Positions 1 through 39,891 of a stretch of DNA of 39,891 bases are shown in pieces. How positions within the stretch are numbered: position 1 is the stretch's first letter; each line of letters starts with the position of its first letter. The notes beneath the pieces are model-generated. The model did not search any database and had not been told where the DNA came from. It worked only from the letters and a program-made list of their open reading frames with translations. The stretch lies in the sequence record OR424387.1. One strand, written 5' to 3'. The position numbers were made by a program, and so were the translations under genes. The DNA comes from Escherichia phage HEMP4.

Positions 1-127
1 CATGGCATTTTTCATGGTACTGATTTCCGGTGACGGTATATAAAACGGTACGATAAAAATTGAGATTTGGAAAAATGTTATCACTCAATTGGTTATGGTT
101 ATCGTAAATAATTGAGTGGGAATGATT
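1..127. repeat. Terminal direct repeat, copy 1 (identical to 39765..39891)
   Basis: First 127 nt of window match last 127 nt exactly by direct comparison; truncated by window edge so true length may be longer. Confidence 0.9.
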
Positions 128-173
128 AACAGCTAACTCATAGCAAGTCATTCCTATTCAGATGCTAATTCAA

Positions 174-204
174 CCCTCTGTTTTTACAGAGGGTTTTTGT
201 TTTT
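174..204 (+). terminator. Rho-independent terminator (CCCTCTGT-tttt-ACAGAGGG followed by T-runs)
   Basis: Perfect 8-bp stem, 4-nt loop, TTTTTgTTTTT tail; lies downstream of lysis operon in a circular map and upstream of int. Confidence 0.7.
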
Positions 205-317
205 ATGTATTCATTTCTATTCACTCTACACCATATTTTTCGGCGGTACAGGTGACGGTATTACCTTAAAGGTATACTCTCATACCGTCATGAAAATGGT
301 TTCTATACGGGTGAATT

Positions 318-1568
318 GTGCTTACCGATACAAAATTAAAAAACCTCAAGCCGCAGGACAAACTGTACAAGGTCTCCGATCGTGACGGGCTGTATGTAGC
401 TGTGCTTACGTCAGGCACGGTCTCGTTTCGCTATGACTACCGTATCAACGGTCGCCGCGAAACACTGGTAATCGGGCAGTATGGGCGTGACGGTATCAGC
501 CTGGCAGAAGCGCGAGAAGAACTGATTGCTGCAAAGAAGCTGCTTAAAGCAGGCCAGTCACCGGCTGCGGCTAAACGTGACGGTATCAAAAAGATTCGTG
601 GTGCCGAGACGTTTGCGGTACATACCGACAGTTATATGAAACACGTCATCCTGGCTGACAGTACCCGCGCAATGAAACAGGCGGTGATCGACCGTGACAT
701 ACTTCCGGTTCTTGGCAATAAAATGATGGCTGAAATTACCACATCGATGGTTCGTGATTTGTGTGACCGGATTGTCGAACGCGGTGGCCGGGCAACAGCA
801 GTGCAGGCCAGGGAGATCATCAGTAGCGTATACCGTCACGCCAATGACCGTGGTCATGGTTTGTTTAATCCTGCGGCTGACATTAAACCTTCGTCTATCG
901 CCATATTTAAACCACGAGAGCGAACACTGACACCAGAAGAAATTGGCCTGTTCTTCCGCACGCTGGATGCCATTGGTGCTATGGGCACTATGAAAATGGC
1001 TTTAAAGCTGGTGCTTATCACTATGGTTCGTAAAGGCGAATTCACTAATGCAACGTGGGACGAAATAGATTTTAAAAAATGGACATGGACAATTCCTTCA
1101 GACCGCATGAAGGGAAGCCGGGCGCACGTTATTTACCTGCCTAAACAGGCTCAGGATATATTGGTTGGGTTGCAGATGTGCGCTGGTGGAAGTGAATATC
1201 TGGTTCCTGGTCGTTACAACTTCCGGAAGCCATTATCTAATGCCGCGCTGAACTCTCTGATCGACAGAACGGTGAAAATAATAAATGAAGATGGTGAGCA
1301 TATTCAGGACTTCACCGTACACGATATGCGCCGTACAGCCAGTACGTTGTTGCATGAGGCTGGTTATCCTTCAGACTGGATTGAAAAGGCTCTGGCACAT
1401 GAGCAGAAAGGTGTGCGCGCCGTATATAACAAAGCGGAATACGCCAGACAGCGCGCCTACATGTTGCAGCAGTGGTCCGATATGATTGATTCCTGGATTA
1501 ACGGGGAGCATACGGATCTGATTCCGTTCTCCCCGTCGAAGTTTGAGAAGTGGATGGCGGGGGAATAA
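318..1568 (+). CDS. int: Tyrosine-type site-specific integrase (P4-like, N-terminal arm-binding domain)
   Basis: 416-aa ORF, GTG start; N-terminus MLTDTKLKNLKPQDKLYKVSDRDGLYV typical of P4-family integrases; C-terminal catalytic region with HDMRRTASTLLHEAGY...VRAVY consistent with R..H..R..Y tyrosine recombinase motifs. Confidence 0.9.
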   Translation: MLTDTKLKNLKPQDKLYKVSDRDGLYVAVLTSGTVSFRYDYRINGRRETLVIGQYGRDGISLAEAREELIAAKKLLKAGQSPAAAKRDGIKKIRGAETFAVHTDSYMKHVILADSTRAMKQAVIDRDILPVLGNKMMAEITTSMVRDLCDRIVERGGRATAVQAREIISSVYRHANDRGHGLFNPAADIKPSSIAIFKPRERTLTPEEIGLFFRTLDAIGAMGTMKMALKLVLITMVRKGEFTNATWDEIDFKKWTWTIPSDRMKGSRAHVIYLPKQAQDILVGLQMCAGGSEYLVPGRYNFRKPLSNAALNSLIDRTVKIINEDGEHIQDFTVHDMRRTASTLLHEAGYPSDWIEKALAHEQKGVRAVYNKAEYARQRAYMLQQWSDMIDSWINGEHTDLIPFSPSKFEKWMAGE

Positions 1569-1577
1569 TTTTGCCCG

Positions 1578-1842
1578 GCACATCCCTGTGCCGCCGCCGT
1601 CAGAAGAATCCTGCCTTGTCGTTGATGTACTCCGCGTGGGTCTGGATATCACGCAGGCATTTGCTCACACCGACGATGTAGCAGAACATGGTGGTCAGCT
1701 CCGCCGCCGCGCCCGATACGTCGTGCCCGTCTTCCTGTAACTGGTTCAGCAGATTCATCAGCAGTGAGTTCTCCGTCAGGCCGAGAACACCAGACGGAGA
1801 ATGAATCAGACTGCGGTAGCCGGGCTTCAGTGGGGCGCTGTA
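1578..1842. repeat. Internal direct repeat copy A (about 265 bp, about 96 percent identical to 33780..34045)
   Basis: Direct alignment by eye; covers 3-prime coding end and 3-prime UTR hairpin (GGCACA-nnnn-TGTGCC) of antirepressor-like gene. Confidence 0.85.
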
Positions 1843-2256
1843 TTCTTTTTTGTCTTCCAGCTTGATCGCCTCCATAATGGCGGGCATGAAGCCTGACAAG
1901 ACCTTCTCCACTTTTGTTTCTTGTTGTCTTAAACGTTTCTCGCATTCAATGAAGTAGCGTCGTACCTGACGACCTTTTTCGTTACGCTCGACCATTGCTA
2001 GTTCTTTGGCTGTATCGAGGGTGAGGTGGTACTCTTTGCGGTTGTGGCCGCCTCTACCAGATGTTTGCTTTCCCAAATTGGAAAGCAAAATATAGTCTTG
2101 ATTTTCAATGAATTCGTATTCTGAAATGCGATTTGTAATCCATGCTGCAAACACCTTTTTAACACCTAAAAAAGCGTGCAGATCGCGGGCATTGCAAAGT
2201 AGGGCTGTTTCGTTAGATATAGTGCCGTTGAATACGGGGATGAGTTGACTGGTCAT
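1600..2256 (-). CDS. Antirepressor-like protein, AntA-type N-terminal domain plus shared C-terminal domain
   Basis: ORF track 1600..2286; ATG at 2256 preceded by AGGAGG SD; N-terminal [12 protein letters not shown]...[14 protein letters not shown] resembles AntA/AntB antirepressor domain; C-terminal 80 aa identical to C-terminus of 33803..34513 and homologous to 34829..35086. Confidence 0.6.
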
Positions 2257-2580
2257 GATGACCTCCTTTGAAGTTTTAGTTAGCAATCACCAGTTAGTAG
2301 CTGGTGATCGGGTGTCAACTAGAGCCTTCAAAGACGCTCCGGGCATATTCCCCTTTTGGGTATTGTATTACGCCTCTCCACCCGACCTTTGTACGGATGT
2401 GACTATGCCAAATTGCAGGCATAAAAAAGCCGCAAAGCTATCGGGTGCGGGTGACCGCTTTGAAGTTCTAGTGCGGTCAGTATGCGATAGCTCTGGCGGC
2501 ATTGTCAAATCATGCGCCACTGAGTCCAGCAATCTCTGCAATACCAATAGCGAGATAATCGCGATTCGTCAGGCGTGATT

Positions 2581-2829
2581 TTATTGCATATGTCTTAGCT
2601 CCACTGAAGTTGTGATTTTATATGGGTTGCCTTTTACCTCAATAACACGATGAGGATCATTTTTTAGCTCTTCCGTAATCTTCCGTAATCTTCTAACAGC
2701 TGAACTTCGGTGTTTATAACGGTAAGTTACAGTTTCTTTTCTCTGCAATACCTCATCATTGCGGTACTTAGTCAAAACCATGACGACTTCAAACCTGACG
2801 CCGTTGTGTGCAACCATAATCTGCTTCAT
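2581..2829 (-). CDS. Hypothetical protein (82 aa)
   Basis: ORF in operon context; internal ATG start overlaps stop of upstream methylase gene (translational coupling); contains 10-bp tandem repeat 2671..2690. Confidence 0.4.
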   Translation of the reverse strand: MKQIMVAHNGVRFEVVMVLTKYRNDEVLQRKETVTYRYKHRSSAVRRLRKITEELKNDPHRVIEVKGNPYKITTSVELRHMQ

Positions 2830-3476
2830 GCTGCACGCTCCCGCCCCTGGTTGTCTGTTGGTGACACCGGAGCATTGCTGAATGCATTTGTTAATCCGCC
2901 AATATCCAACGCGTATCCAGGGTGTAGTTGCACTGCCGGGTCTTCGCACTGATTACCCCAAACATCGAAGCCATGAGACGTCTGGCGGGCGAACAGTTCA
3001 ATGCGAGAAACATCGCCTAACAATTGCACAAGTTTTTCACGAACGACATCTGGTTTTCTTGAATGCTCAAGCCGCGGTGCGGTAAATGACTGAACGATCC
3101 CTGCATTAATGCGTGGAGGTAGTTTTCCCTTTACTGCAAACAGGCAATCTTCACTATTGGCGCGAGTCATGTGTCCCATACCCATAACCAGTTTATCTGG
3201 TTGTCGACTACCACATTTTATCCACGTGAAGCCCTTCATGGTCATCAGACGGAATCCCCAGGCTTCAACAACTTTTAGCGCTTCGAGTGGTTGTGTTGGC
3301 ACCCACCACATGGCCAACAGACAGTTTTCATCGGCCAAATCCCACACAGGAAGGCGGCAGATATCCATCACACTCATAACCGGATATTTAAAACTGGCAC
3401 CGCGATTACCATCTGCGGCTTTGTCCCGGTATACCCAGGGTGGATCTGCATAGATTAGTGTGTATTTCTTAGTCAT
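2826..3476 (-). CDS. DNA N6-adenine methyltransferase, MT-A70-like
   Basis: Protein begins MTKKYTLIYADPPW with DPPW catalytic motif typical of MT-A70/N6-adenine MTases; no adjacent restriction endonuclease gene recognised. Confidence 0.8.
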   Translation of the reverse strand: MTKKYTLIYADPPWVYRDKAADGNRGASFKYPVMSVMDICRLPVWDLADENCLLAMWWVPTQPLEALKVVEAWGFRLMTMKGFTWIKCGSRQPDKLVMGMGHMTRANSEDCLFAVKGKLPPRINAGIVQSFTAPRLEHSRKPDVVREKLVQLLGDVSRIELFARQTSHGFDVWGNQCEDPAVQLHPGYALDIGGLTNAFSNAPVSPTDNQGRERAA

Positions 3477-3768: not shown

Positions 3769-3877
3769 TTAATCCAACCCTCTCTGAAAATTAATGCCAG
3801 CAGATAAAGCCATGCTGAAACAGAGGCCAGGAATAAGTACCATCCTGACCATTTGCTCCAGTGCCTTAGCAGCACAC

Positions 3878-4126: not shown

Positions 4127-4175
4127 AAATACCTCTCTTGGTTGCAGTGCGGCGCGCGTGGCGCCGCGGTGGTGG

Positions 4176-6173: not shown

Positions 6174-6326
6174 TCAGCCCTCCCATATCTCGTTATCGTT
6201 GGCCACATCGCGAGCTTCTTTGCTGACGAAAGCCCACTTAATACCTTCCTGTAAGGTGCGGAACTTCCAGCTCATGAATCCGCATGCAGTAACGCAGTAC
6301 CAACCGTTGATGATTTTCCACTGCAT
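6174..6326 (-). CDS. Small hypothetical protein (50 aa), first gene of leftward operon
   Basis: Hand-translated MQWKIINGWYCVTACGFMSWKFRTLQEGIKWAFVSKEARDVANDNEIWEG; GAGG SD upstream; below ORF-track length cutoff. Confidence 0.3.
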   Translation of the reverse strand: MQWKIINGWYCVTACGFMSWKFRTLQEGIKWAFVSKEARDVANDNEIWEG

Positions 6327-6345
6327 AACTTGTTACCTCGGTTTG

Positions 6346-6360
6346 TTACCGTTGAGGTAA
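6346..6360. promoter_or_regulatory. Operator-like palindrome TTACC-N5-GGTAA (left operator region, site 1)
   Basis: ttaccgttgaggtaa, perfect inverted repeat, intergenic upstream of leftward operon. Confidence 0.55.
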
Positions 6361-6407
6361 TGATTATGCGTATTTGGTTTGGTGTCAATAGATATGAGTT
6401 AAAAAAA

Positions 6408-6422
6408 TTACCCACAAGGTAA
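6408..6422. promoter_or_regulatory. Operator-like palindrome TTACC-N5-GGTAA (left operator region, site 2)
   Basis: ttacccacaaggtaa, perfect; 62 bp from site 1. Confidence 0.55.
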
Positions 6423-6479
6423 TCTTGCTGGCAATAAAAAAGCCGCCATGAGGCGGCTTACTTGCTGAAAACTATAGTT

Positions 6480-7064
6480 TTATTGTTTGCTTTTTTCGTT
6501 CTGGTTGATGACAAATTCAATGTAACTTTCGATCTTTGCTTTCTCGGTTTCGGGTAACAATGCGTAGCGCGAGCGGTCATAGTTGATAGTCGCAGGGTCG
6601 TGCGGGTGAATCAGTAATTCATAGCCGTGACGCCCGAATGCGGATGCAACATTCTCCAGGGTGGAAATGGAAACGCTGACCTCATTGTTTAACAGGCGGC
6701 TGATTGTCACCTGGGCGACGCCGGATGCGCGGTGAAGTTTTCCCTGTGTTGAAAGGTCGCGGCTTTCGCTCATCCAGCGTTCCAGGTTGTGAGCCGCCAG
6801 CTGACCAATGTCGCTTGGGCCGACAGGCTGAAAACCTTCCTGAGAAAGCGAGCGATCGATATCAAGCCAGTTACGGGGTTTATTGGCGGCAGCTTCAATT
6901 TTTCGCGCAACCTGGTCGCCGATAACCTTCTTACCAAGAGCCCAGCGGTTTACCAGATTTGCCTGAGTTCCAAGTTTTTCTGCCATCCGCGTCTGAACAC
7001 CATTGAATTCACGGTCGATCAAGTCGTTGAGATTTTGCCTGCGGACGTCCTGGATACTTTTCAT
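6480..7064 (-). CDS. Putative prophage repressor (HTH, no recognisable S24 peptidase domain)
   Basis: 194 aa, divergent from Cro-like gene with operator cluster between; N-terminal HTH-like segment TRMAEKLGTQANLVNRWALGKK; no Ala-Gly/Ser-Lys autocleavage module seen; no SD upstream of ATG. Confidence 0.55.
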   Translation of the reverse strand: MKSIQDVRRQNLNDLIDREFNGVQTRMAEKLGTQANLVNRWALGKKVIGDQVARKIEAAANKPRNWLDIDRSLSQEGFQPVGPSDIGQLAAHNLERWMSESRDLSTQGKLHRASGVAQVTISRLLNNEVSVSISTLENVASAFGRHGYELLIHPHDPATINYDRSRYALLPETEKAKIESYIEFVINQNEKSKQ

Positions 7065-12930: not shown

Positions 12931-12971
12931 GAGTAGATTATGCATGATGAATTTGACGGGTTTTGAATACT

Positions 12972-12997
12972 GCCGCCAACTATGGCGGCTTTATTTT
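12972..12997 (+). terminator. Rho-independent terminator
   Basis: GCCGCC-aactat-GGCGGC followed by TTTATTTT. Confidence 0.65.
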
Positions 12998-13008
12998 GCA
13001 TGGTACTA

Positions 13009-13041
13009 TTACCACAACGGTAACTATTACCACGGTGGTTA
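13009..13041. promoter_or_regulatory. Two operator-like sites upstream of terS (13009..13023 perfect; 13027..13041 9/10)
   Basis: ttaccacaacggtaa and ttaccacggtggtta. Confidence 0.5.
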
Positions 13042-13637
13042 TGATGCCTGCTGAACCTAAAACCTATAAACGCAAATCAACGCAATTTAAGCCACTAACA
13101 GCAATGCAGGAGGCTTATTGCCAGTCATACATCAAAACGCCTGAAAACCAGACTCAGGCAGCGATTAACGCAGGATTCTCCCCAAATACAGCGGCAGTTA
13201 AAGCCAGTGTCATGATGCGCGATGAACGCATTCAGAAACGGATTGCCGAGTTGATGGAGGAGCGCAACAAACGAATGCGCGTCAGTGCTGATTACGTTCT
13301 CATGCGCCTGGTGGAGATCGACCAGATGGACGTTATCGACATCCTCAACGACGATGGGAGCCTTAAACCAATCCGTGAGTGGCCGAAAATCTGGCGCACT
13401 ACGCTTAGTGGCTTTGATCTGTCATCGACCATCATGAACATGAACGAGGATTCGATAGAGACAATCCTCAAAAAAATTAAATGGCCTGACAAGGTGAAGA
13501 ACCTTGAGCTGATTGGTAAGCATGTTGATGTCAATGCGTTCAAAGAACGTCTGGATGTTAATGTGAATGTGACAATTGCTGATCGCATAGCGGCAGCCAG
13601 GAAGAGACTGAAAGAACGTCAGGATGGCAATCAGTGA
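13041..13637 (+). CDS. terS: Terminase small subunit
   Basis: ORF 12963..13637 trimmed to ATG 13041; TPENQTQAAINAGFSPNTAAVKASVMM matches Terminase_2-type small subunit signature; directly upstream of terL. Confidence 0.8.
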   Translation: MMPAEPKTYKRKSTQFKPLTAMQEAYCQSYIKTPENQTQAAINAGFSPNTAAVKASVMMRDERIQKRIAELMEERNKRMRVSADYVLMRLVEIDQMDVIDILNDDGSLKPIREWPKIWRTTLSGFDLSSTIMNMNEDSIETILKKIKWPDKVKNLELIGKHVDVNAFKERLDVNVNVTIADRIAAARKRLKERQDGNQ

Positions 13638-15109
13638 CAGATACAGCGTTATCTCCTGAAGAGCAGTTAATTGAGGATATTGCAGGGTTCACTCACGATC
13701 CGCTTGGCTATGCCCTCTATGCGTTCCCGTGGGGGGAAGAGGGGACTGAACTGGCACATGCTACCGGCCCACGTCAGTGGCAGGCCGATGCGTTCCGAGA
13801 GATACGTGATCACCTGCAGAATCCAGAGACGCGTTATCAGCCGCTTATGCTGGCACGTGCTTCTGGTCACGGTATTGGTAAATCCGCATTCATCTCAATG
13901 CTCATCAACTGGGGCATGTCCACTTGCGAGGATTGTAAGGTCGTGGTGACCGCCAACACCGACAACCAGCTACGAACGAAGACCTGGCCGGAAATTATCA
14001 AGTGGTCGAACCTTGCTATCACGAAAGACTGGTTTACCTGTACCGCTACCGCGATGTACAGCAATGACCCTGGGCACGACAAGCGGTGGCGGGCTGACGC
14101 AATACCCTGGTCTGAGCACAACACTGAGGCATTCGCCGGACTACACAACGAGCGCAAACGCATCATCGTGGTGTTTGATGAAGCGTCGAACATTGCGGAT
14201 CTGGTGTGGGAAGTTGCCGAGGGTGCGCTTACGGACGAAGACACTGAGATTATTTGGGTGGCGTTCGGAAACCCTACACGTAACACCGGGCGTTTTCGCG
14301 AATGTTTCCGCAAATATAAACACCGCTGGAAAACTGCGCAGATTGACAGCCGGACGGTGGAAGGCACTAACAAACAGCAGTTGCAGAAATGGGTTGATGA
14401 CTACGGGGAAGACAGCGACTTCGTTAAAATCCGTGTGCGTGGCATATTCCCTGATGCATCTGAATTGCAGTTTATCCCTACCGGTCTTACTGACGAGGCA
14501 ATGAAACGGGTGGTAACCGCTGCGCAGGTTGCACATGCTCCGGTGATAATCGGCGTTGACCCGGCATACTCCGGCGTTGATGACGCTGTGATATACCTGC
14601 GGCAGGGGCTACACAGTAAGGTGCTGTGGACTGGCAACAAGACTACCGACGATCTGATTATGGCGAAGCGTATCGCTGACTTTGAAGACCAGTATCAGGC
14701 TGACGCGGTGTTCATCGACTTCGGTTACGGAACCGGTTTGAAGTCAATCGGTGACGGCTGGGGTCGTACATGGCAACTTGTTCCGTTCGGTGGCGCGTCT
14801 ACTGACCCGCAGATGCTCAACAAGCGTGGGGAGATGTTCAACTCATGCAAGACATGGCTGAGGCTCGGTGGCATGCTGGATGACCAGGAAACAGCGGACG
14901 ACCTGTCGGCAGCAGAGTACAAAGTTCGAGTGGACGGTAAAATCGTTATCGAACCGAAGGAAGATATCAAAGAGCGACTTGGGCGTTCTCCTGGTAAAGG
15001 CGATGCGCTACTGCTGACGTTTGCGTTCCCTGTGTCGAAGCGTCTGCGAATTCCCGGTCAGCAGAACCAGCAAGGCAAGGCCATCACAGATTACGATCCC
15101 TATGCTTAA
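13634..15109 (+). CDS. terL: Terminase large subunit
   Basis: 491 aa; Walker A-like ASGHGIGKS, Walker B-like IIVVFDEAS, C-terminal nuclease-like region; overlaps terS stop. Confidence 0.85.
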   Translation: MTDTALSPEEQLIEDIAGFTHDPLGYALYAFPWGEEGTELAHATGPRQWQADAFREIRDHLQNPETRYQPLMLARASGHGIGKSAFISMLINWGMSTCEDCKVVVTANTDNQLRTKTWPEIIKWSNLAITKDWFTCTATAMYSNDPGHDKRWRADAIPWSEHNTEAFAGLHNERKRIIVVFDEASNIADLVWEVAEGALTDEDTEIIWVAFGNPTRNTGRFRECFRKYKHRWKTAQIDSRTVEGTNKQQLQKWVDDYGEDSDFVKIRVRGIFPDASELQFIPTGLTDEAMKRVVTAAQVAHAPVIIGVDPAYSGVDDAVIYLRQGLHSKVLWTGNKTTDDLIMAKRIADFEDQYQADAVFIDFGYGTGLKSIGDGWGRTWQLVPFGGASTDPQMLNKRGEMFNSCKTWLRLGGMLDDQETADDLSAAEYKVRVDGKIVIEPKEDIKERLGRSPGKGDALLLTFAFPVSKRLRIPGQQNQQGKAITDYDPYA

Positions 15110-15820: not shown

Positions 15821-15897
15821 TGGCGCGGCATGCAGGATTCGAACCTGCGACCAACCGCTTAGAAGGCGGTTGCTCTGTCCAACTGAGCTAATGCCAC
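15821..15897 (-). tRNA. tRNA-Arg (anticodon UCU)
   Basis: Reverse complement folds as cloverleaf: acceptor GTGGCAT/ATGCCGC (one G-U), D-arm GCTC-AGTTGGACA-GAGC, anticodon stem ACCGC/GCGGT with loop CTTCTAA (anticodon TCT), T-arm GCAGG-TTCGAAT-CCTGC, discriminator G, CCA end; 77 nt. Confidence 0.85.
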
Positions 15898-16545: not shown

Positions 16546-18225
16546 ATGGCGGAAACAACTAAAGAGCGATTGAACAAACAGTTCGCACAACTTGAAAGCG
16601 AGCGTCAGTCGTTCGAGCCGCACTGGCGCGAGTTGAGTGATTACATCAACCCGCGTGGTTCCCGCTTTCTGACTTCTGAGGTCAACCGTAACGATCGGCG
16701 CAATACACGCATTATTGATTCGACCGGGACTATGGCGGCGCGCACTCTCGCCAGCGGCATGATGTCAGGCATCACAAGCCCCGCGCGTCCGTGGTTTCGC
16801 CTGGCTACGCCAGATCCTGAAATGATGGATTATGGCCCTGTTAAGTTGTGGCTTGAGGCAGTTCAGAACCGCATGAACGATATGTTCAATAAGTCGAATC
16901 TCTACCAGTCTCTTCCGCAGTTATACGGAAGCCTCGGCACATACAGCACTGGTGCAATGGCAGTGCTGGAGGATGACGAGGACATCATTCGCACAATGCC
17001 ATTCCCGATAGGCAGTTACTACCTGGCTAACTCACCTCGTGGCAGTGTTGACACCTGTTTTCGCAAGTTCTCTATGACTGTTCGTCAGCTTGTTCAGGAG
17101 TTCGGGCTAAATAACGTCAGCGAATCCGTAAAAAGCATGTGGGAAAGCGGCACCTACGAGAAGTGGATCGAAGTGATGCATTCGGTTTACCCGAACATTG
17201 ACCGCGATACATCGAAGCTGGATAGCAAGAACAAGCCATTCAAATCGGTTTATTACGAGGTTGGTGGAGATAACGACAAGTTGTTGCGTGAGTCCGGATT
17301 CGATGAGTTTCCAATTATGGCTCCGCGCTGGGAAGTTAACGGCGAAGATGTTTATGGATCATCATGCCCGGGTATGCTGGCGCTTGGACCTGTTAAGGCA
17401 TTGCAGCTTCTCCAGAAGCGCAAGTCGCAGTTGATTGATAAAGCCACCAATCCGCCGATGGTTGCTCCGACTTCCCTCAAGAATCAGCGCGCCTCCCTTC
17501 TTCCTGGCGACATCACGTATATCGATCAGATTACTGGTCAGGATGGCTTCAGGCCTGCTTATCTGGTTAACCCCAGTACAGCAGATTTGGTGGCAGACAT
17601 TCAGGACACTCGTCAAATCATTAACAGCGCCTACTTTGTCGATCTGTTCATGATGTTGCAGAACATCAATACCCGCTCGATGCCTGTTGAAGCGGTGATC
17701 GAAATGAAAGAAGAAAAACTTCTGATGTTGGGGCCGGTTCTGGAGCGTCTGAACGACGAATGTCTTAATCCTCTCATTGACCGCGCTTTCTCGATGATGG
17801 TGCGCAAAAACATGCTGCCGCCACCGCCTGACGCGATGGAAGGCATGCCCCTGAAGGTCGAATACATTTCCGTCATGGCTCAGGCGCAGAAGTCTATCGG
17901 CCTGTCCAGTCTGGCGTCCACGGTTAACTTCATTGGTCAACTTGCGCAAGCGAAACCAGAAGCTCTCGACAAACTCAACGTTGATCAGGCGATCGATGCA
18001 TTCGCTGATATGTCCGGAGTGTCTCCAACCGTCATTGTTCCGCAGGAACAGGTTGAGCAGGCTCGCCAGCAACGGGCACAGCAACAACAGCAGCAACAAA
18101 TGATGGCGATGGGGATGGCGGCGGCACAGGGGGCCAAGACGCTAAGCGAAGCTAAAACTTCGGATCCGAGTGTGTTGTCAGCTATGGCGAATGCAGTTAG
18201 TGGTCAGGGTGGGCAATCACAATGA
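16546..18225 (+). CDS. Portal (head-to-tail connector) protein, podovirus type
   Basis: 559 aa; position after terminase; Gln-rich C-terminus; resembles T7 gp8-class connector proteins. Confidence 0.75.
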   Translation: MAETTKERLNKQFAQLESERQSFEPHWRELSDYINPRGSRFLTSEVNRNDRRNTRIIDSTGTMAARTLASGMMSGITSPARPWFRLATPDPEMMDYGPVKLWLEAVQNRMNDMFNKSNLYQSLPQLYGSLGTYSTGAMAVLEDDEDIIRTMPFPIGSYYLANSPRGSVDTCFRKFSMTVRQLVQEFGLNNVSESVKSMWESGTYEKWIEVMHSVYPNIDRDTSKLDSKNKPFKSVYYEVGGDNDKLLRESGFDEFPIMAPRWEVNGEDVYGSSCPGMLALGPVKALQLLQKRKSQLIDKATNPPMVAPTSLKNQRASLLPGDITYIDQITGQDGFRPAYLVNPSTADLVADIQDTRQIINSAYFVDLFMMLQNINTRSMPVEAVIEMKEEKLLMLGPVLERLNDECLNPLIDRAFSMMVRKNMLPPPPDAMEGMPLKVEYISVMAQAQKSIGLSSLASTVNFIGQLAQAKPEALDKLNVDQAIDAFADMSGVSPTVIVPQEQVEQARQQRAQQQQQQQMMAMGMAAAQGAKTLSEAKTSDPSVLSAMANAVSGQGGQSQ

Positions 18226-29828: not shown

Positions 29829-32303
29829 ATGAGACAGGAATGTATACAAGCGGTCCAGCAGGCGGCGCAGCGCACGTTAACGGCGCGAGAAATACAGAAC
29901 ATTGAAGACCGCATTTATCGAAATATGCGCTCCATTGCTCGTGATGACCCGATGTCGTGGCGACAACTTTCCGAATCAGAACGGTTGTATCGTGCAGCAC
30001 AATTGGCATCTGAAGAATTACAGCGAGAAGCGGCATTAAAGAAACGTCGTGTGGCCCTCACTATAGCCGCACGTCAGAGATTGGATAAATTTATCAATAG
30101 CTATCAAGGGGCTGATGGGAAACTTGGCGCTCTTAACCGTACTATTGCTTTTAATGCAGACGGTAAATCGAATTTCCTCTCTGTTGAATCCAGAACAAAA
30201 GCCACCCGTGATTATGCATTGAGTCAATTGCAGGAGGCATTCGAAGCAGTTGATCCTCGCTTTTTTGGTCTGTTTGAAGATGAAGCGGGCGTACGTGACC
30301 TGATATATGAAATGCGGGGGCAAAATACTGGCAATGCTAAAGCAAGAAAAGGTGCTAAGGCGTGGAGAGAAGTTACAGAGCTGCTGCGCCGCCGGTTTAA
30401 TGATGCTGGTGGGGACATTGGCTATCTCGAAAACTGGGGGATCCCTCAACATCATTCTATGGAAAAGGTTGGGGCGGTATCAAAAGATAAATGGGTTAGC
30501 GATGTTATAGGTAAGCTGGATCGCAAATATTATACCCGAGCCGATGGACAACTGATGAACGATGCCGAGTTGTCTGCATTTCTTGGAGAGGCTTATAACA
30601 CGATCGCTACTGGTGGGCTGAATAAGCTTACTGATACCGGAATGCGAATTTCCGGCGCACGTGCTAACCGTGGTAATGCATCACGACAGATACATTTCAA
30701 AGATGCAGATTCCTATCTGCAATATCAGCAACTTTATGGCGATCGCTCTCTATGGGAAATCATGGTCGGTCACCTGGAAGGTATCAGTAAAGATATTGCA
30801 CTGGTGGAAACATATGGTCCAAACCCCGATCATGTTTTCCGCTCTCTTCTTGATCAGGTGAAGGCAGAAACGGCAACAGCTAACCCGAGTAAAACCGGTA
30901 AAGTCGAGCGGCTGGCGAACAACACAGAGAATCTGTACAACTTTATTTCCGGAAAGACACAGCCTGTAGCGAATCCGCACATCGCGCGATGGTCTGACAA
31001 TATCCGCAACTGGCTGGTTGCCAGCAGACTCGGATCCGCGTTGCTGTCATCGTTCTCTGATCTTGGAACCATGTATCTGTCTGCGAAGGTTACCAACCTT
31101 CCAATGAACCAGTTATTCCGCAACCAGCTTGAAGCTATGGACCCAACGAACCGTACAGAACTTGCGCGGGCGCGCCGCGCTGGTCTGGCGATGGAATCTC
31201 TACTTGGCAGCGTTAACCGCTGGGCGATGGATAATATGGGGCCGTCTGTGTCTCGTTGGGCTGCAACGGCGGTAATGCGTGCCAGTGGGCTTACAGCATG
31301 GTCAGATGCGCACAAGCGCGCCTATGGCGTAACCATGATGGGAAGCCTGGGAGAAGTAGTGTCACGGACACCAGACCTTCGTCGCCTCGATGACTCTGAT
31401 TTTCGTATCCTGAAAAGCAAAGGGATTACTGACACAGACTGGAGCGTATGGAAGTTGGCGCAACAGGAGGACTGGGGGAACGGTAATAATACGATGCTGA
31501 CACCGGAAAGCATTATGCGTATCCCTGATTCAGCAGTTAAACATCTTGGTGAGCCTGAACGCGTGAAATTTGAGGCAATGCGTAAACTGCTCGGTGCCGT
31601 AACTGAAGAAGTTGATATGGCTGTTATTACACCGGGAGCACGTGAGCAACTGATAACCGGTTCTGGTATTCAGCGTGGAACATGGAAAGGTGAATTAACG
31701 AGAAGTGTTTTCCTGTTTAAATCGTTCCCTATCTCGGTTGTTATGCGTCACTGGTCACGCGCTATGGGTATGCCGTCTGCTGGTGGGCGTGCGGCATATA
31801 TTGCGACGTTTATTGCCAGTACGACCATTCTTGGCGCTTTGTCGCAACAACTTAACGACCTTGCGTCTGGTCGTAATCCTCGAGAGATGACAGGAGAAGA
31901 TGCTGCTAAATTTTGGCTTGGTGCTCTACTGAAAGGTGGTGGTCTTGGCCTTTACGGTGACTTTTTATTGTCAGATCACACTAGGTACGGGAGCGGCGCG
32001 CTGGCGTCGATGCTTGGCCCGGTAGCTGGTCTGGTTGATGACGTAGTGAAGATAGCTCAGGGCATACCGCTAAATGCTGTGGAAGGGAAGAGTGAGCAGA
32101 CTGGTGGTGATCTGGTGAAGCTGGGGAAAGGTTTGATGCCAGGTGCGAATCTCTGGTACTTGAAGGCGGCTCTCGATCACATGATCTTTAATCAGATGCA
32201 GGAGTATTTTTCACCAGGCTATTTGCGTAAAATGGAGCAACGTTCGAAGAAAGAGTTTAACCAGACATACTGGTGGCGACCTCAGGATGTCACTCCGCAA
32301 TAA
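29829..32303 (+). CDS. Large internal virion / ejection protein (824 aa)
   Basis: Large ORF completing structural operon. Confidence 0.5.
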   Translation: MRQECIQAVQQAAQRTLTAREIQNIEDRIYRNMRSIARDDPMSWRQLSESERLYRAAQLASEELQREAALKKRRVALTIAARQRLDKFINSYQGADGKLGALNRTIAFNADGKSNFLSVESRTKATRDYALSQLQEAFEAVDPRFFGLFEDEAGVRDLIYEMRGQNTGNAKARKGAKAWREVTELLRRRFNDAGGDIGYLENWGIPQHHSMEKVGAVSKDKWVSDVIGKLDRKYYTRADGQLMNDAELSAFLGEAYNTIATGGLNKLTDTGMRISGARANRGNASRQIHFKDADSYLQYQQLYGDRSLWEIMVGHLEGISKDIALVETYGPNPDHVFRSLLDQVKAETATANPSKTGKVERLANNTENLYNFISGKTQPVANPHIARWSDNIRNWLVASRLGSALLSSFSDLGTMYLSAKVTNLPMNQLFRNQLEAMDPTNRTELARARRAGLAMESLLGSVNRWAMDNMGPSVSRWAATAVMRASGLTAWSDAHKRAYGVTMMGSLGEVVSRTPDLRRLDDSDFRILKSKGITDTDWSVWKLAQQEDWGNGNNTMLTPESIMRIPDSAVKHLGEPERVKFEAMRKLLGAVTEEVDMAVITPGAREQLITGSGIQRGTWKGELTRSVFLFKSFPISVVMRHWSRAMGMPSAGGRAAYIATFIASTTILGALSQQLNDLASGRNPREMTGEDAAKFWLGALLKGGGLGLYGDFLLSDHTRYGSGALASMLGPVAGLVDDVVKIAQGIPLNAVEGKSEQTGGDLVKLGKGLMPGANLWYLKAALDHMIFNQMQEYFSPGYLRKMEQRSKKEFNQTYWWRPQDVTPQ

Positions 32304-33779: not shown

Positions 33780-34045
33780 GCACATCCCTGTGCCGCCGCC
33801 CGTCAGAAGAACCCAGCCTTGTCGTTGATGTACTCCGCGTGGGTCTGGATATCACGCAGGCATTTGCTCACACCGACGATGTAGCAGAACATGGTGGTCA
33901 GCTCCGCCGCCGCGCCCGATACGTCGTGCCCGTCTTCCTGTAACTGGTTCAGCAGATTCATCAGCAGTGAGTTCTCCGTCAGGCCGAGAACACCAGACGG
34001 CGAATGAATCAGGCTACGGTAGCCGGGCTTCAGTGGGGCACTGTA
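33780..34045. repeat. Internal direct repeat copy B (matches 1578..1842)
   Basis: Same as copy A. Confidence 0.85.
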
Positions 34046-34513
34046 GGTTTTGTTCTCTATCTTCATCGCCTGCATTACTGCTGACGCCGTGGCGTTGGCT
34101 ACCTGGTCGGCAACCATCTTTATGCGTTCTTCCTGCGGGAGCGAGTTTTTAATGTAACTTCCGGTGCGGCGGATCTGAGGAAGAACCTCACCTGTAACCC
34201 ATTTACGAAAGCGGTAGGGGATAGTGCCTGGTGTCACTGCGTCGCGGCAGCGGAGGATCAGTGTGTAGAGGCCTGACTCGGAGATGATGTTGATCTCTTT
34301 TACTCGGCTGTCAAAAATTGCACGATGTTCATGCCCTATGTTGAACATAGACCTTTCATCATCATCCAGTTTTTCAAGTGCTTGGGTGACGTTTTGGATG
34401 CGCAGCGCACTACAAACGTCTTGGGCTACAAACCATGGTTGGCCATCGATAATGATGGAACGGATAGGGTTAACAGATTCAAATTTGAAGATGGCAGTTT
34501 GAGCATTAGCCAT
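33803..34513 (-). CDS. Bro-N domain antirepressor-like protein with shared C-terminal domain
   Basis: ATG at 34513 (ORF track GTG 34528); N-terminal AIFKFESVNPIRSIIIDGQPWFVAQDVCSAL is classic Bro-N; C-terminal 80 aa identical to C-terminus of 1600..2256 gene. Confidence 0.75.
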   Translation of the reverse strand: MANAQTAIFKFESVNPIRSIIIDGQPWFVAQDVCSALRIQNVTQALEKLDDDERSMFNIGHEHRAIFDSRVKEINIISESGLYTLILRCRDAVTPGTIPYRFRKWVTGEVLPQIRRTGSYIKNSLPQEERIKMVADQVANATASAVMQAMKIENKTYSAPLKPGYRSLIHSPSGVLGLTENSLLMNLLNQLQEDGHDVSGAAAELTTMFCYIVGVSKCLRDIQTHAEYINDKAGFF

Positions 34514-34667
34514 GGTGGTTATCTCCACTTAGTGATTTTAATCACCACCGCAACGCCAATTACTGGTGGTGAACTGGACAAGGTTGGCGTACCGGCCTAA
34601 GTGGTACCGGCGTCCTTTCGGACCCCTGCCCAGCCCACCATAATTCGGATATAGCTGTGCTTAACGC

Positions 34668-35125: not shown

Positions 35126-35162
35126 TCAAATAATTTGTTTGCTATCCAGCACGTTTTGCAAA

Positions 35163-35281: not shown

Positions 35282-37471
35282 ATGACGGTCTCAACCGAAG
35301 TTGACCACAACGAATACACAGGTAACGGCGTTACGACATCATTTCCGTATACCTTCCGTATTTTCAAAAAATCCGACCTGGTTGTTCAGGTGTCTGACCT
35401 GAACGGGAACGTAACAGAATTGGTTCTGGATACCGGTTATACGGTAACTGGGGCGGGCACTTATAGTGGCGGTTCTGTGGTTCTTCCGTCTCCGCTTGCT
35501 GCTGGCTGGCGAATTACGATAGAGCGTGTGCTTGATGTGGTGCAGGAGACTGATCTTCGCAATCAGGGAAAATTTTTCCCCGAAGTTCATGAAGATGCAT
35601 TTGACTACCTGACGATGCTGATCCAGCGATGTTTTGGGTGGTTCAGACGTGCATTGATGAAACCATCTTTGCTTGCAAAATATTACGATGCAAAGCAAAA
35701 CAAAATTTCTAACCTTGCAGATCCATCATTTGAGCAGGACGCTGTAAATAATCGCTCAATGCGTAATTATGTCGATGCTGCAATCGCCGGGGTTGTTGGT
35801 GGTTTTGGTTGGTTTATACCGTCAGGAAGCGGGGCAAGACAACGAACATTTCAAAGCAAAATGAGGGATATAATTTCTCCTTGTGATTACGAAGATAATA
35901 TTTTTATGATTAAGGAGTTGATATCCAAAGGCAAAAATGCCGCTGTTTTTAACTCATATTATACTTTTGTTATTACTGTTGGCGAATGGGGTGATTACCC
36001 TACACTCAAAGATGCAATCATTGCAGCCCAGTCAATGAGACCTATGTGGGATGGTGGTAATGCTTTCTGCGAAATAAGAATTAAGACCGGGCATATTATC
36101 AACTATCAAATTGAATTCAGTTCAGGTGTTGATTTGTCTTGGATTAAAATAACATCAGAAGACTCAGTGGTTTTCTCTGACACTCGTTTGTTTACTAAAA
36201 TCGTTAGAACGTATTACGAATACAAGTATTTATTTTACATTTGCGATGCAGCAAAAAGTCCTGTATTTGCTATTCAGATCGAAGAAAATAGAGATGATAG
36301 CGATGTTTGTGCATTTATTGTAACTCAAAAAGCTGAACTTAATTTCTATCCGTATTCAGGTGCTCGAAAGTTCTACGTTGGAATTCATGGTAGTTTTGGT
36401 GCAAAAATTAGTGCATATCATACCGGATGTGCTCCTGATGAGGAAAGTGTTGCTGCATATATGCCAGAAGGGTATTACGTATGTGATTTTTCTTATAGCA
36501 GATACTCTTCCCTGCAACTGGTAAATAATGTCAAGGCATCAATGCCTGTAAGCAAGTTTGAACGGTGCACAGAGAGTACGGTTGCGTCAGTTAATTGTAT
36601 TTATAATGTTAAAGCAGATTTTCAGGGGTCAAGTGCAAGCTATTGTTATATAGGATGGAATGTAAGAGATGGTTCAAATGTTAATATACGCGACCATAAA
36701 ACTATACATTGCTCATATCGTGGATTAACCTGCATTCATACAGCATATGTTGATGCAAGACGACATGACGTTGAAGAAAGTGATGCAGAAACAAGTGGTA
36801 AAGTCCTTGAACCAAATATTGAAAAAGGTTTTTATGGATGTGCACTTGGTGTGCGTATTGATGGTGCGGGTTGCGTTGATGTTGCTGGTAATGATATGCG
36901 CAATTGTGGAACAGCCGTTAATGCAGACACTGGTGCTGTTATTTCAGGAAAGGCTGTAGATATCTCAGGGGCTGAGCTGGGATTTGATTGCCATGCAGGA
37001 GCATCTGTTAATTTTCCAAGGCTATGGGGTACAGATATAAAAAAATTAATGCACCTCCAAGATGGTGTAAGGTTTAACTCTAATATTTGTCATGTATTTG
37101 GTGCAAATCCCACAAAAGATATTAGATGGATTGATGTAGAGAGATCTGAAGCTTCTTTTATGAATGCAACGCTGGATGCAGATTCAGGATTTATTGCCGA
37201 CTGTGGTAGTAGGATAACCATTGAAGGAAGTAAAGTTAAAAACCAAACAATAAGAAGTTTTTTTGGATCATATGTGGCTATAAATAATACTGTTGCTGAC
37301 AGAACTTATTCAGATATAGCCGATGTTCCGCAGTTGACTATTAGTGGAGGATCTTTTATTTCTGCTACAGGATATTCTAATTCTGACTCCAGCCCTCTGA
37401 GGTTGAGCACAACACGAAATACACTTGGCGTTGGAGGAGCCATATTTTCAACCAATGGGGAAGTTTCATGA
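35282..37471 (+). CDS. Tail fiber/tailspike: T7 gp17-like N-terminal adaptor domain plus beta-helix-like receptor-binding region
   Basis: 729 aa; N-terminal YTGNGVTTSFPYTFRIFKKSDLVVQV resembles T7 tail fiber N-terminal domain; central/C-terminal Gly/Asn/Val-rich repeats typical of parallel beta-helix depolymerases; distal part AT-rich. Confidence 0.75.
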   Translation: MTVSTEVDHNEYTGNGVTTSFPYTFRIFKKSDLVVQVSDLNGNVTELVLDTGYTVTGAGTYSGGSVVLPSPLAAGWRITIERVLDVVQETDLRNQGKFFPEVHEDAFDYLTMLIQRCFGWFRRALMKPSLLAKYYDAKQNKISNLADPSFEQDAVNNRSMRNYVDAAIAGVVGGFGWFIPSGSGARQRTFQSKMRDIISPCDYEDNIFMIKELISKGKNAAVFNSYYTFVITVGEWGDYPTLKDAIIAAQSMRPMWDGGNAFCEIRIKTGHIINYQIEFSSGVDLSWIKITSEDSVVFSDTRLFTKIVRTYYEYKYLFYICDAAKSPVFAIQIEENRDDSDVCAFIVTQKAELNFYPYSGARKFYVGIHGSFGAKISAYHTGCAPDEESVAAYMPEGYYVCDFSYSRYSSLQLVNNVKASMPVSKFERCTESTVASVNCIYNVKADFQGSSASYCYIGWNVRDGSNVNIRDHKTIHCSYRGLTCIHTAYVDARRHDVEESDAETSGKVLEPNIEKGFYGCALGVRIDGAGCVDVAGNDMRNCGTAVNADTGAVISGKAVDISGAELGFDCHAGASVNFPRLWGTDIKKLMHLQDGVRFNSNICHVFGANPTKDIRWIDVERSEASFMNATLDADSGFIADCGSRITIEGSKVKNQTIRSFFGSYVAINNTVADRTYSDIADVPQLTISGGSFISATGYSNSDSSPLRLSTTRNTLGVGGAIFSTNGEVS

Positions 37472-37764
37472 TTAAGAGCATTGATGTCACTCCATTTCTT
37501 CACTCGCTTTGCGCTTTTGTGGCTCAGGTACTGGTTGGTATTTTTACCGGAAACTGGGCTTACGGTGCGATAGCCGGTTGTACGTTCTTCATTGCGCGTG
37601 AACACACCCAGGCAGAATATCGCTGGATAGAAAAGTTTGGGAAAGGGAAACGTATCAACATGCCGTGGTGGGGAGGTTTTGATCCACGCGTGTGGGATGT
37701 GGGAAGTCTGTTGGATTTTGCTGTTCCTGTTGTTTTTTGTTTTTGTGTTTATTTCTCTATTTGA
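37468..37764 (+). CDS. Small membrane protein (98 aa), translationally coupled to tailspike
   Basis: ATGA overlap with tailspike stop; two hydrophobic segments; function unknown. Confidence 0.5.
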   Translation: MIKSIDVTPFLHSLCAFVAQVLVGIFTGNWAYGAIAGCTFFIAREHTQAEYRWIEKFGKGKRINMPWWGGFDPRVWDVGSLLDFAVPVVFCFCVYFSI

Positions 37765-37966
37765 CTGCTACCGCGCCATTAAATGGTGCGGTATTCAACC
37801 TGCTCTTCACTGTTTGTTTCTTCAGAGTCATGTAAAAGGTGAGCTTTATTCTCGGCATGAAAAACAGGGAATTGACGATGTTAAAGTAACAAAAAACCAT
37901 AAATGGTTTATTATGCGTAATGCTTTACTGTTCAGGAGGTTGTTATGCATATAAACGGTGGAAAAC

Positions 37967-38371
37967 ATGTCAGCTCAACTAACCAGTGAAACTTTAAATC
38001 AGTGGCTTAGCATGAGTTCTCTGGCGGCGGTGATAGCAGGAGTTCCTCCTGAGGTTGCTTTGGGTGCTTTGGCTGGAGCGGTAATTTTTGTTACCTCTGC
38101 AGTAGAGTACCCCATCCGTCGCCGGGTGCTCCTGTCGATGCTCAGCTTTCTTTGCGGCCTTCTCTTTTACAAACCAGCAGCATCAATTCTTATCGGCATA
38201 GCCAGCCTGATCCCTACCATCACGCAGGACTCTTTTGAAAAAGGGATTGTTTTCTCTGCAGGCGCATTCGTGTCAGCAATTGTCGCTGTGCGTATTGGTA
38301 TATGGCTCTATCACCGTTCCGATAATCCACGCGAGTTAATTCCGGGGAGAAAAGACGATGGTAACGCATGA
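37967..38371 (+). CDS. Putative holin (membrane protein, about 3 TM)
   Basis: ORF track 37958..38371; ATG 37967 after GGTGGA; hydrophobic segments, charged C-terminus; located upstream of endolysin. Confidence 0.45.
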   Translation: MSAQLTSETLNQWLSMSSLAAVIAGVPPEVALGALAGAVIFVTSAVEYPIRRRVLLSMLSFLCGLLFYKPAASILIGIASLIPTITQDSFEKGIVFSAGAFVSAIVAVRIGIWLYHRSDNPRELIPGRKDDGNA

Positions 38372-38666
38372 GTTTTTTTTGCTTATCACCAATGCAGTTA
38401 TTTGCACTGGCATAGCAATTCGCGTTGTCACATTCCGGCGTAACGGCTCTCAACACCGAAGGTGGGGAGGATGGCTTGCTTATTTCCTGATTGTTGCTGC
38501 GGCCAGTATTCCTGTTCGTGTCGCCTATGCAATCTGGTTACGTACGCCAATGGCTGTGGATTTATCTGAGGTCATTATCAACGCTGTCATGCTAGCTGCG
38601 GTTATTAAAACGCGCGGTAACGTCGTTCAAATTTTCAAAGTATCGAGGTCTAAACATGGAGATTAA
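38358..38666 (+). CDS. Putative holin/antiholin (membrane protein)
   Basis: 102 aa hydrophobic protein overlapping both neighbours. Confidence 0.45.
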
Positions 38667-39285
38667 ACAATTCCAGCGAGCTGCTGGTATCAGCGAGGCA
38701 CTGGCCGCACGCTGGTTCTCGCATATAACTTCTGCGATGAAAGAGTTTGGTATCAGCAAACCAGAAGATCAGGCTATGTTTATTGCTCAGGTCGGGCATG
38801 AGTCTGGAGGCTTCACCCGGTTGCAGGAGAATTTCAACTACAGCGTCAGCGGACTGGCTAACTTTGTTCGGGCTGGGCGTCTCACTCAGGGACAGGCCAA
38901 CGCATTGGGGCGACGTGCAGGCGAACCACCATTGCCACTTGAGCGCCAGAGAGCGATTGCCAATCTGGTGTACAGCAAACGCATGGGGAACAATGCCCCT
39001 GGTGATGGCTGGAACTACCGTGGGCGCGGGCTTATCCAGGTTACCGGTTTGAATAACTATCGTGACTGTGGAAACGGTCTTAAGGTTGACCTGCTGGAGA
39101 GTCCTGAACTGCTGGCGCAGGACGAATACGCGGCTCGTAGCGCGGCGTGGTTCTTTGCCAGCAAAGGATGCATGAAGTATACCGGCGATATTGCACGTGT
39201 AACTCTGATTATCAATGGTGGCCGGAACGGCATCGACGACCGGCGCGCGCGATACATCAATGCCAGTAAGGTGCTGGCGGTATGA
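38656..39285 (+). CDS. Endolysin, glycoside hydrolase family 19-like
   Basis: 209 aa; [12 protein letters not shown]...[16 protein letters not shown] resembles GH19/chitinase-like phage endolysins; GAGGT SD. Confidence 0.8.
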
Positions 39286-39764
39286 TCTGGGCATTCGTAA
39301 AAGCATACCGGAAACAGTTGATTATCATGGCGGTGCTTGCTGTTCTGGTCATATCAGGAGTTGTTGCCTGGAGTGTACACGGCAGTCGTCAGTACGACGC
39401 CGGGTATGCGCAGGCGAAAGAAGACCGCAAAACCGAAGATGAGAGAATTCGTCAGCACTACGAACAGGAGAAAGCGATCAATGAACGTGAAGCGCAGCAG
39501 AGGATCGACCAGGCGCGCAATGATGCTCTTGATGCTGCCGCTCGCGCTGGCCGGTTGCAGCAACAGCTCGTTGCCATCCGTGAGCAGCTCAGGCAGTATA
39601 ACGCCATTGTCGGCGCTGGGACGTCAGCCGCAGACACCGGAGTTTTGCTTGCCGACGTGCTCAGTAAATCTCTCGAGAGAAACAGACAACTGGCAGAGTA
39701 TGCTGACCGGGCAGCCGAAGCCGGAAGAGTCTGTGAAAAACAGTACGACACCCTGACCAGATAG
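39282..39764 (+). CDS. Rz: Rz-like inner-membrane spanin
   Basis: 160 aa; N-terminal TM helix [17 protein letters not shown] then charged coiled-coil; overlaps endolysin stop. Confidence 0.7.
39481..39756 (+). CDS. Rz1: Rz1-like outer-membrane lipoprotein spanin, embedded in Rz in +1 frame
   Basis: Internal ORF with signal peptide and lipobox LALAGC; Pro/Ser-rich mature part; wholly inside Rz gene. Confidence 0.6.
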   Translation: MNVKRSRGSTRRAMMLLMLPLALAGCSNSSLPSVSSSGSITPLSALGRQPQTPEFCLPTCSVNLSRETDNWQSMLTGQPKPEESVKNSTTP

Positions 39765-39891
39765 CATGGCATTTTTCATGGTACTGATTTCCGGTGACGG
39801 TATATAAAACGGTACGATAAAAATTGAGATTTGGAAAAATGTTATCACTCAATTGGTTATGGTTATCGTAAATAATTGAGTGGGAATGATT
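39765..39891. repeat. Terminal direct repeat, copy 2 (identical to 1..127)
   Basis: Exact match to window start. Confidence 0.9.

Follow-up and report, generated by a model that had tools for sequence, protein, structure and literature searches.

The 39,891-nt stretch of DNA analysed here, referred to as the window, derives from a temperate Uetakevirus podophage of E. coli that resembles phiV10, epsilon15 and ZX5. Close to its left end, it contains a tyrosine integrase gene (int; 318..1568, forward strand), whose product shows Pfam matches to Arm-DNA-bind_3 (4e-20), Phage_int_M and Phage_integrase (1.4e-19). A preliminary description of the sequence had called this integrase P4-like, in agreement with its Arm-DNA-bind_3 plus Phage_integrase architecture (Pfam; PMC9782041). 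At the right end, an Rz-like lysis gene (39282..39764, forward strand; Pfam DUF2514, 1.9e-41) is the last gene ahead of the attachment site attP, a position that it shares with its counterparts in epsilon15, ZX5 and the prophages. The terminase genes are found at 12963-15109, about 13 kb away from the repeat described below. The presumed large terminase gene (13634-15109) gave no match in Pfam.

The window begins and ends with the same sequence. Self-comparison identified an exact match between its prefix and suffix with a maximal length of 127 nt (1-127 = 39765-39891), although, with both window edges cutting the repeat, its true extent is not readable from the window by itself. An exact match of this length within 40 kb cannot have arisen by chance. 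Neither a direct nor a reverse-complement third copy of the 127-mer is present within the 39,891-nt window, and removal of one copy leaves 39,764 nt of unique sequence, exactly as initially described. The repeat is also AT-rich, as noted at the time, with a G+C content of 33% compared to 48.8% for the whole window. Its first copy (1..127, forward strand) comprises the P arm of attP (1-110) and the att core (111-127) and continues into the P' arm, just as it does in ZX5 and epsilon15. The second, redundant copy (39765..39891, forward strand) consists of the same 127 nt and follows immediately after the stop codon of the Rz-like reading frame (39764), again as in epsilon15 and ZX5.

That the repeat terminates in the 17-nt att core had been overlooked in the preliminary description. 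This core, ATTGAGTGGGAATGATT (111..127, forward strand; duplicated at 39875-39891), emerged from a four-way comparison of attP, attB, attL and attR that included the strains EC332, whose prophage arms are 100% identical to those of the window over the stretches compared, MS 198-1 and 0H18. In the host, this sequence covers the five final codons of guaA (I-E-W-E-stop) and two further bases, TT. The integration target is thus the 3' end of guaA, consistent with the earlier remark that the repeat does not look like the 3' end of a tRNA gene. This core, located 190 bp 5' of int, has been published as proven for phiV10, epsilon15 and ZX5 (PMC9782041), and the same distance of 190 bp separates the end of the core (127) from the start of int (318) in the window, matching the published attP.

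The arms on either side of the core are likewise organized as in known members of this group. The sequence GGTGACGGTAT has three exact matches in the window, compared to 0.01 expected. It is a candidate arm-type integrase site in the P arm (29..39, forward strand; duplicated at 39793-39803), where an integrase binding site is annotated in epsilon15, and recurs as a second candidate in the P' arm (251..261, forward strand), at about the same position as another annotated integrase binding site of epsilon15. Judged by their sequence, the putative arm-type sites would therefore flank the core on both sides, in agreement with the epsilon15 annotation. The P' arm (128..317, forward strand), which spans the region between core and int, matches the attL side of the EC332 prophage with 100% identity and shows no relationship to the host B' sequence. 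It contains a terminator-like hairpin (172..195, forward strand), identified in a terminator scan by its 10-bp stem and T tract and annotated as a rho-independent terminator in epsilon15. This hairpin resembles the terminator hairpin of the host guaA gene, AAACCCTCTGTTACTACAGAGGGTTTTT, which is displaced by integration. Compared with phiV10, epsilon15 and ZX5, the window shows the identical core 190 bp upstream of a P4-like integrase gene. Its P arm shares 98% identity with the P arm of ZX5, and the annotated arm-site and IHF-site region of epsilon15 corresponds to that of the window. The window combines the core, the 190-bp spacing and an adjacent tyrosine integrase with an arm-binding domain, and prophages with its arms are integrated at guaA; these are the hallmarks of a guaA-targeting Uetakevirus attP, and there is no essential difference between its attP and those already known. 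The genuine attachment site, already published for Uetakevirus, is the 17-bp core (111-127).

In isolated relatives, the 127-mer is flanked by the Rz-like lysis gene on one side and the integrase gene on the other. It occurs once per record in all phage records that carry it (26/26), at an internal position of about 26.6-26.8 kb in phiV10, epsilon15, SPN1S and E15-type records. In ZX5 and epsilon15, Rz, attP and int are contiguous, and both ends of the window overlap on the one copy of the 127-mer. The guaA end was detected in each of the 5,426 complete E. coli genomes analysed (5,426/5,426); 497 of these genomes contained the 127-mer, at a median of one place per genome, and the remaining 4,929 did not. 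The lysogens EC332 and MS 198-1 carry prophages with window-like arms integrated at guaA. In both of them, agreement with the window ends precisely at the 127|128 boundary at attR and sets in at position 111 at attL. The single 127-mer of the lysogens is therefore situated at attR, with attL having just the 17-nt core in common, and the empty attB of strain 0H18 also contains only this core (ATTGAGTGGGAATGATT). An IS200C insertion was considered as the cause of the identity break at 127|128 in MS 198-1. This possibility was rejected because position 127 is followed by ordinary host B' sequence, namely the guaA terminator, just as at the unoccupied site of 0H18, and the insertion element lies further downstream.

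These results bear on the suggestion, made in the preliminary description, that the two 127-mers represent the attL and attR sites of an integrated prophage cut at its boundaries. It is true that the 3' end of the repeat holds the real att core and that the integrase gene adjoins the repeat. However, the 127-mer occurs once in a lysogen, at attR, with attL sharing only the 17-nt core, and the empty attB provides 17 rather than 127 nt. Moreover, the left end of the window joins the P arm to P' and int, an arrangement typical of attP that is absent from the left junction of a single prophage, and the length of the repeat is exactly 127 nt. Such an origin is thus extremely improbable. A single copy of the 127-mer in an uninterrupted host locus had been proposed as evidence in its favor, yet the empty 0H18 site offers no more than the core. 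The accompanying view that host flanking sequence is needed for a decision was too pessimistic, as the comparison of lysogens settles the question.

The second possibility raised at the time, a circular contig with an assembler-derived k-mer overlap, agrees with the tiling of the window ends over the single-copy Rz-attP-int region and with the length of the repeat. Indeed, 127 is the largest k of SPAdes, and tools for virus catalogues frequently classify k-mer overlaps of this kind as 'DTR' or 'circular'. A phage genome assembled with SPAdes and bearing a 127-bp k-mer at both ends has been reported (PMC10140849). Like a circular contig of this type, the window shows an exact 127-nt identity of prefix and suffix, and its ends tile on sequence that is single-copy in its relatives. 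It differs, however, in its opening point, which is not arbitrary but a k-mer whose final base is also that of the core, implying that the graph branches to host DNA there. We therefore consider it highly likely that the window represents one circular turn of a phiV10/epsilon15-like genome of 39,764 bp plus a 127-nt overlap, opened at the branch between attP and attR. A de Bruijn assembler, which we infer to have been of the SPAdes type with a final k of 127, would write the k-mer overlap at both ends of a cyclic path, such that the DNA itself would carry one copy of the 127-nt sequence and the other would be a product of assembly. Because it ends on the last base of the core, the 127-mer, made up of the 110-nt P arm and the 17-nt core, would be the final k-mer that attP (P-O-P') and attR (P-O-B') share, and it would branch in the k=127 graph only if reads of both junctions exist. 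Branching at the end of the core therefore means that the sample very probably held both the attP form and the guaA-integrated form, with the presence of host-junction reads being something that we infer. The attP form could be an excised circle, a concatemer or the inner junction of a tandem prophage. Spontaneous induction of ZX5 lysogens has been reported to yield 1e7 PFU/mL (PMC9782041), thus providing a ready source of mixed phage forms.

The start of the repeat at the first base past the Rz stop codon (39764), which had previously gone unnoticed, represents a second coincidence and might point to deliberate trimming by some tool. It follows from the architecture of the family, as epsilon15 and ZX5 show the same distance of 127 nt between the Rz stop codon and the end of the core.

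Contigs from metagenomes show a similar pattern. In a set of 66 metagenome contigs carrying the P arm and the core, 21 had an end within 127 nt of the core, compared to 2.0 expected (Poisson P about 7e-15). Nine contig ends were located at distances exactly equal to common k values, namely 27, 41, 55 (two contigs), 77 (three contigs) and 127 (two contigs), whereas 0.27 were expected. Some of the other distances deviate by 2-5 nt from a canonical k (51, 53, 54, 75, 118 and 122-124), and these deviations are unexplained. The attP pattern was also detected in 10 contigs of a viral contig collection; a collection of genome contigs gave no hits.

It is conceivable that the window stems from a pure circular phage assembly that was opened arbitrarily, with the coincidence between the repeat and the end of the core being due to chance, as an isolated cycle may be opened anywhere by an assembler. 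However, a random opening would fall on precisely this base with a probability of about 1 in 39,764, rising to about 1e-4 when a few equivalent anchors are allowed for, and the contig ends of unrelated assemblies cluster at the same core. In addition, when we simulated the k=127 graph, window position 1 was a branch vertex only if the circle and the integrated form were combined, whereas the circle alone produced vertices only at an internal 185-nt repeat and not at the window ends. An arbitrary opening is thus very unlikely. Even less plausible, to the point of being hardly credible, is the notion that the 127 nt form a direct terminal repeat physically present in the virion DNA, in the style of T7. 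The phage belongs to the podoviruses, among which other members are known to have exact repeats of 100-300 nt at their termini; like the window, T7-like genomes are podophage sequences of about 40 kb that end in short exact direct repeats. Unlike these, however, the repeat of the window is part of attP, with the lysis genes on one side and int on the other, rather than marking packaging ends, and is about 13 kb away from the terminase genes. Among the virion-derived records of relatives, none starts or ends at the repeat or has two copies of it, with phiV10, epsilon15, SPN1S and ZX5 all containing a single, internal copy. The related phage Tyrion is circularly permuted (PMC5754475), and this permutation disfavors a physical repeat, as do the coincidence with the end of the core and the k-sized length. 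Our literature search on the packaging mode of epsilon15 returned nothing usable, Tyrion being the only relative documented, as circularly permuted.

A less remote, albeit still unlikely, scenario is that the cyclic path was derived from a head-to-tail double prophage at guaA instead of a free circle, in which case the overlap would still have been made by the assembler, but without any free circular molecule being required. In a k=127 graph, a tandem array is indistinguishable from a mixture of circular and integrated forms. In the complete genome FDAARGOS_1301, Rz, the 127-mer and int lie inside the chromosome, and the 127-mer is present at two places. The 229-kb draft contig L090 shows the same adjacency of Rz and int, and the metagenome contig OATH01000114.1 makes two phage turns and then leads out into host DNA. 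When the 824-aa structural protein encoded at 29829-32303 was looked up by exact match, all contigs returned were long and chromosomal. However, only 9 additional places of the 127-mer were detected among the 497 lysogen genomes (about 2%), and spontaneous induction is documented for this group of phages. From sequence alone, a tandem and an excised-circle origin cannot be separated.

Collectively, our analysis identifies the terminal repeat as an assembly artefact superimposed on a known att site. The genome is 39,764 bp long and circularly closed, so that one 127-nt copy should be trimmed and the terminal repeat should be annotated neither as a DTR nor as att sites. A related case is provided by the 38,709-bp circular 'plasmid' record pNADC1036guaAphage (NZ_CP076267.1), which represents another phage of this family and was submitted together with the genome of its E. 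coli host. Its sequence starts on the initial base of the same core, whereas the window was opened at the k-mer ending at the end of the core, and its overlap has been trimmed away, unlike that of the window. As a methodological by-product, we note that de Bruijn contigs of phiV10/epsilon15-like phages end at a distance of k to either side of the att core, so that in these phages contig ends alone allow the core to be located and the coexistence of integrated and attP forms to be inferred. It may well be that the opening point of a temperate-phage contig with a k-mer overlap records the boundary of the att core to the base and reveals such coexistence. If this behavior were general, 'DTR' ends and contigs broken near att sites could be used to map att cores without reads or host flanks, and contig ends in public catalogues could flag spontaneous induction or tandem lysogeny.

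Apart from its terminal repeat, the window contains another direct repeat, which is internal, spans 259 nt (185 of them exact) and had been missed previously. In addition, an AntA-type antirepressor gene adjoins int. The phage records compared lack an AntA-type gene at this position, whereas it occupies this position in 23 complete E. coli genomes. The idea that the internal 185-nt repeat signals a chimeric assembly was rejected, since the int-AntA arrangement occurs at 100% identity in the complete genome of EC332 and in 22 further complete genomes. On a circle, the sole alternative traversal of a direct repeat leads to two separate circles.

The 127-bp repeat at the window ends is an artefact of assembly. 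It closes into a circle the genome of an ordinary E. coli phage, of a type that has already been described well. The longest prefix that recurs as a suffix measures exactly 127 nt (1-127 = 39765-39891), leaving 39,764 nt of unique sequence, as stated in the preliminary description; neither a third nor an inverted copy was found within the window. The repeat is indeed AT-rich, with 33% G+C versus 48.8% for the window. By Megablast, the window belongs to the temperate podophages of the phiV10/epsilon15 group (genus Uetakevirus), with vB_EcoP_ZX5 as its best relative (98.1% identity across 87% of the window's first 25 kb), followed by TL-2011b, phiv142-3, PAS61 and phiV10. The left repeat copy precedes the open reading frame of a tyrosine integrase (318-1568; domains Arm-DNA-bind_3, Phage_int_M and Phage_integrase), while the gene for an Rz-like lysis protein (39282-39764; DUF2514) ends one base before the right copy. 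The genes for the small terminase (12963-13637) and the portal protein (16546-18225) lie far from the window ends. Between the terminase and portal genes, there is a tRNA-Arg gene (anticodon TCT; 15821-15897, minus strand), which is also annotated in the prophage of strain FDAARGOS_1301.

The 127-mer is present as a single copy in 26/26 phage records containing it and is internal, at about 26.6-26.8 kb, in the phiV10, epsilon15, SPN1S and E15-type records. In epsilon15, it begins directly after the Rz gene and contains integrase and IHF binding sites that are annotated as belonging to attP. When aligned to ZX5, the right and left window ends overlap on one copy, thereby rebuilding a contiguous array of Rz, 127-mer, P' arm and int. 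Since both ends tile on one ZX5 copy, the duplication closes a circle and is absent from phage DNA, which, together with the single copy in relatives, bears out the earlier proposal of a circular contig with an assembler overlap.

The other reading initially considered, in which the two copies are the attL and attR sites of a trimmed prophage, is refuted by the lysogens. Among 5,426 complete E. coli genomes, all of which have the guaA 3' end, 497 contain the 127-mer, always in the chromosome and at a median of one place per genome. In lysogen MS 198-1, it follows Rz at the right prophage end, and identity to the window ends exactly at 127|128, beyond which the host side continues with TGACCCTGCAC... 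and the guaA terminator, then IS200C and yfgI; at the left end, host guaA leads through ATTGAGTGGGAATGATT into window position 128 onward and int. The same junctions are found in EC332, which shows 100% identity to the window in both the 127-mer and the stretch 128-2700, with attL reading guaA...CTACC / ATTGAGTGGGAATGATT / AACAGCTAAC... and attR reading ...CGTAAATA / ATTGAGTGGGAATGATT / TTGATCCC..., and the empty site of strain 0H18 reads ...CTACC / ATTGAGTGGGAATGATT / TGACCCTG.... The true prophage-flanking direct repeat is thus the 17-bp att core (111-127 and 39875-39891), which encodes the last GuaA codons (I-E-W-E-stop). Lysogens have one copy of the 127-mer, at attR, with only the core at both junctions, and the empty site of 0H18 has the core only. 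The biological att site inside the repeat is already known: a core attgagtgggaatgatt located 190 bp 5' of int, with the guaA 3' end as attB, has been reported as proven for phiV10, epsilon15 and ZX5 (PMC9782041), and the gap from position 127 to the int start at 318 is likewise 190 bp. The P' arm contains a hairpin (172-195; AACCCTCTGTTTTTACAGAGGGTT) followed by a T tract, and it is very similar to the terminator of host guaA, AAACCCTCTGTTACTACAGAGGGTTTTT; with this hairpin and the core, integrated guaA would keep its last codons and a phage-supplied terminator. In MS 198-1 (NZ_CP146687.1, ~6180-6890 of the stretch L002), a copy of IS200C lies directly after the guaA terminator hairpin, between attR and yfgI.

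That the repeat sits on the att core very probably results from the way in which de Bruijn graphs break at recombination junctions. The 127-mer consists of 110 nt of P arm and the 17-nt core, and its final base is the last core base, so that it represents the last 127-mer common to attP (P-O-P') and attR (P-O-B'). The largest k used by SPAdes is 127, and a SPAdes-assembled phage genome carrying a 127-bp k-mer at its two ends has been reported (PMC10140849). In a graph of this k, the 127-mer would have two successors if and only if the reads hold both junctions, and a cycle attached to it would be written out from and back to the branching k-mer, resulting in a 127-nt overlap. When k = 127 graphs were simulated from the window sequence with genuine host flanks, either form by itself (circle or integrated) gave branching k-mers only at an internal 185-nt repeat (starts 1613/33816 and 1671/33874), whereas both forms together gave two extra ones, a two-successor k-mer at position 1 and a two-predecessor k-mer at 111. 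The window start coincides exactly with the two-successor k-mer, a match with a chance of about 1 in 39,764.

Independent support comes from contig ends that cluster near the same core in other assemblies. Metagenome contigs scanned for P arm plus core (GTAAATAATTGAGTGGGAATGATT) yielded 66 loci, all of which split right after ...GAATGATT, where the continuation is P' (attP) in some and B' (attR) in others. A contig end lies at most 127 nt from the core in 21 of them, with 2.0 expected under uniform placement (Poisson P ~7e-15). Nine of these ends fall at an exact common k (27, 41, 55 twice, 77 three times and 127 twice; 0.27 expected), and the remaining 12 lie at 17-124 nt (e.g. 51, 53, 54, 75, 113, 118 and 122-124), several of them 2-5 nt off a common k. 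Contig OATH01000114.1 (79,603 bp) goes twice round the phage genome (period 39,763 bp), with attP in mid-contig; one end holds attR and runs 60 nt into host B', so that it stops 77 nt from the core start (a k = 77 anchor), and by arithmetic the contig should begin at the first core base. Whether it reflects an assembler walk round the cycle or a tandem prophage, its structure indicates that actual assemblies of this phage do contain both forms together. The record pNADC1036guaAphage (NZ_CP076267.1), a phage of the same family listed as a circular 'plasmid' (38,709 bp) of E. coli NADC1036, has its opening at the first core base. Contig ends of this sort can therefore reveal att cores as well as coexisting integrated and attP forms.

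One possible source of the attP junction is phage circles, either excised or replicating, in a culture of lysogens or in a community, given that ZX5 lysogens spontaneously release 1e7 PFU/mL (PMC9782041). A tandem double prophage is also possible: the complete FDAARGOS_1301 genome (NZ_CP070111.1, 4855694-4895820) carries Rz, 127-mer and int within the chromosome, with the 127-mer at two places, indicating a tandem double prophage of this family at guaA, and Rz and int adjoin in the same way in a draft contig of 229 kb. The 127 nt are unlikely to be a physical terminal repeat, because they sit in attP, ~13 kb from the terminase genes, and none of the virion-derived records of the family ends at the 127-mer or has two copies; moreover, circular permutation has been demonstrated for the relative Tyrion (PMC5754475), and the graph model accounts for both the length and the end point of the repeat. 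The first base after the Rz stop codon is also the first of the 127-mer, which leaves a slight chance that the sequence was trimmed at a gene boundary by a tool. However, epsilon15 and ZX5 show the same 127-nt interval between the Rz stop and the end of the core, so that this spacing reflects family architecture and the start at Rz is not independent evidence of anything. The length of a repeat described elsewhere (PMC9369149) suggests that it could be the same k-mer overlap artefact.

The window also contains a second direct repeat (1597-1855 and 33800-34058; 259 nt, 96% identity), exact over 185 nt (1613-1797 = 33816-34000). It corresponds to the 3' ends of two antirepressor-like genes on the minus strand, one with an AntA domain (1600-2286) and one with a Bro-N domain (33803-34528), which points to a common C-terminal module of ~85 aa. 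As it exceeds k = 127, the assembler must have resolved it by read pairs. The AntA-type gene lies directly downstream of int, and no phage record covered at least 80% of this region (1500-2700); relatives instead have DUF1382/MT-A70 or a phosphatase at this position. The same int-Ant arrangement is found in 23 complete E. coli genomes, including EC332 at 100% identity.
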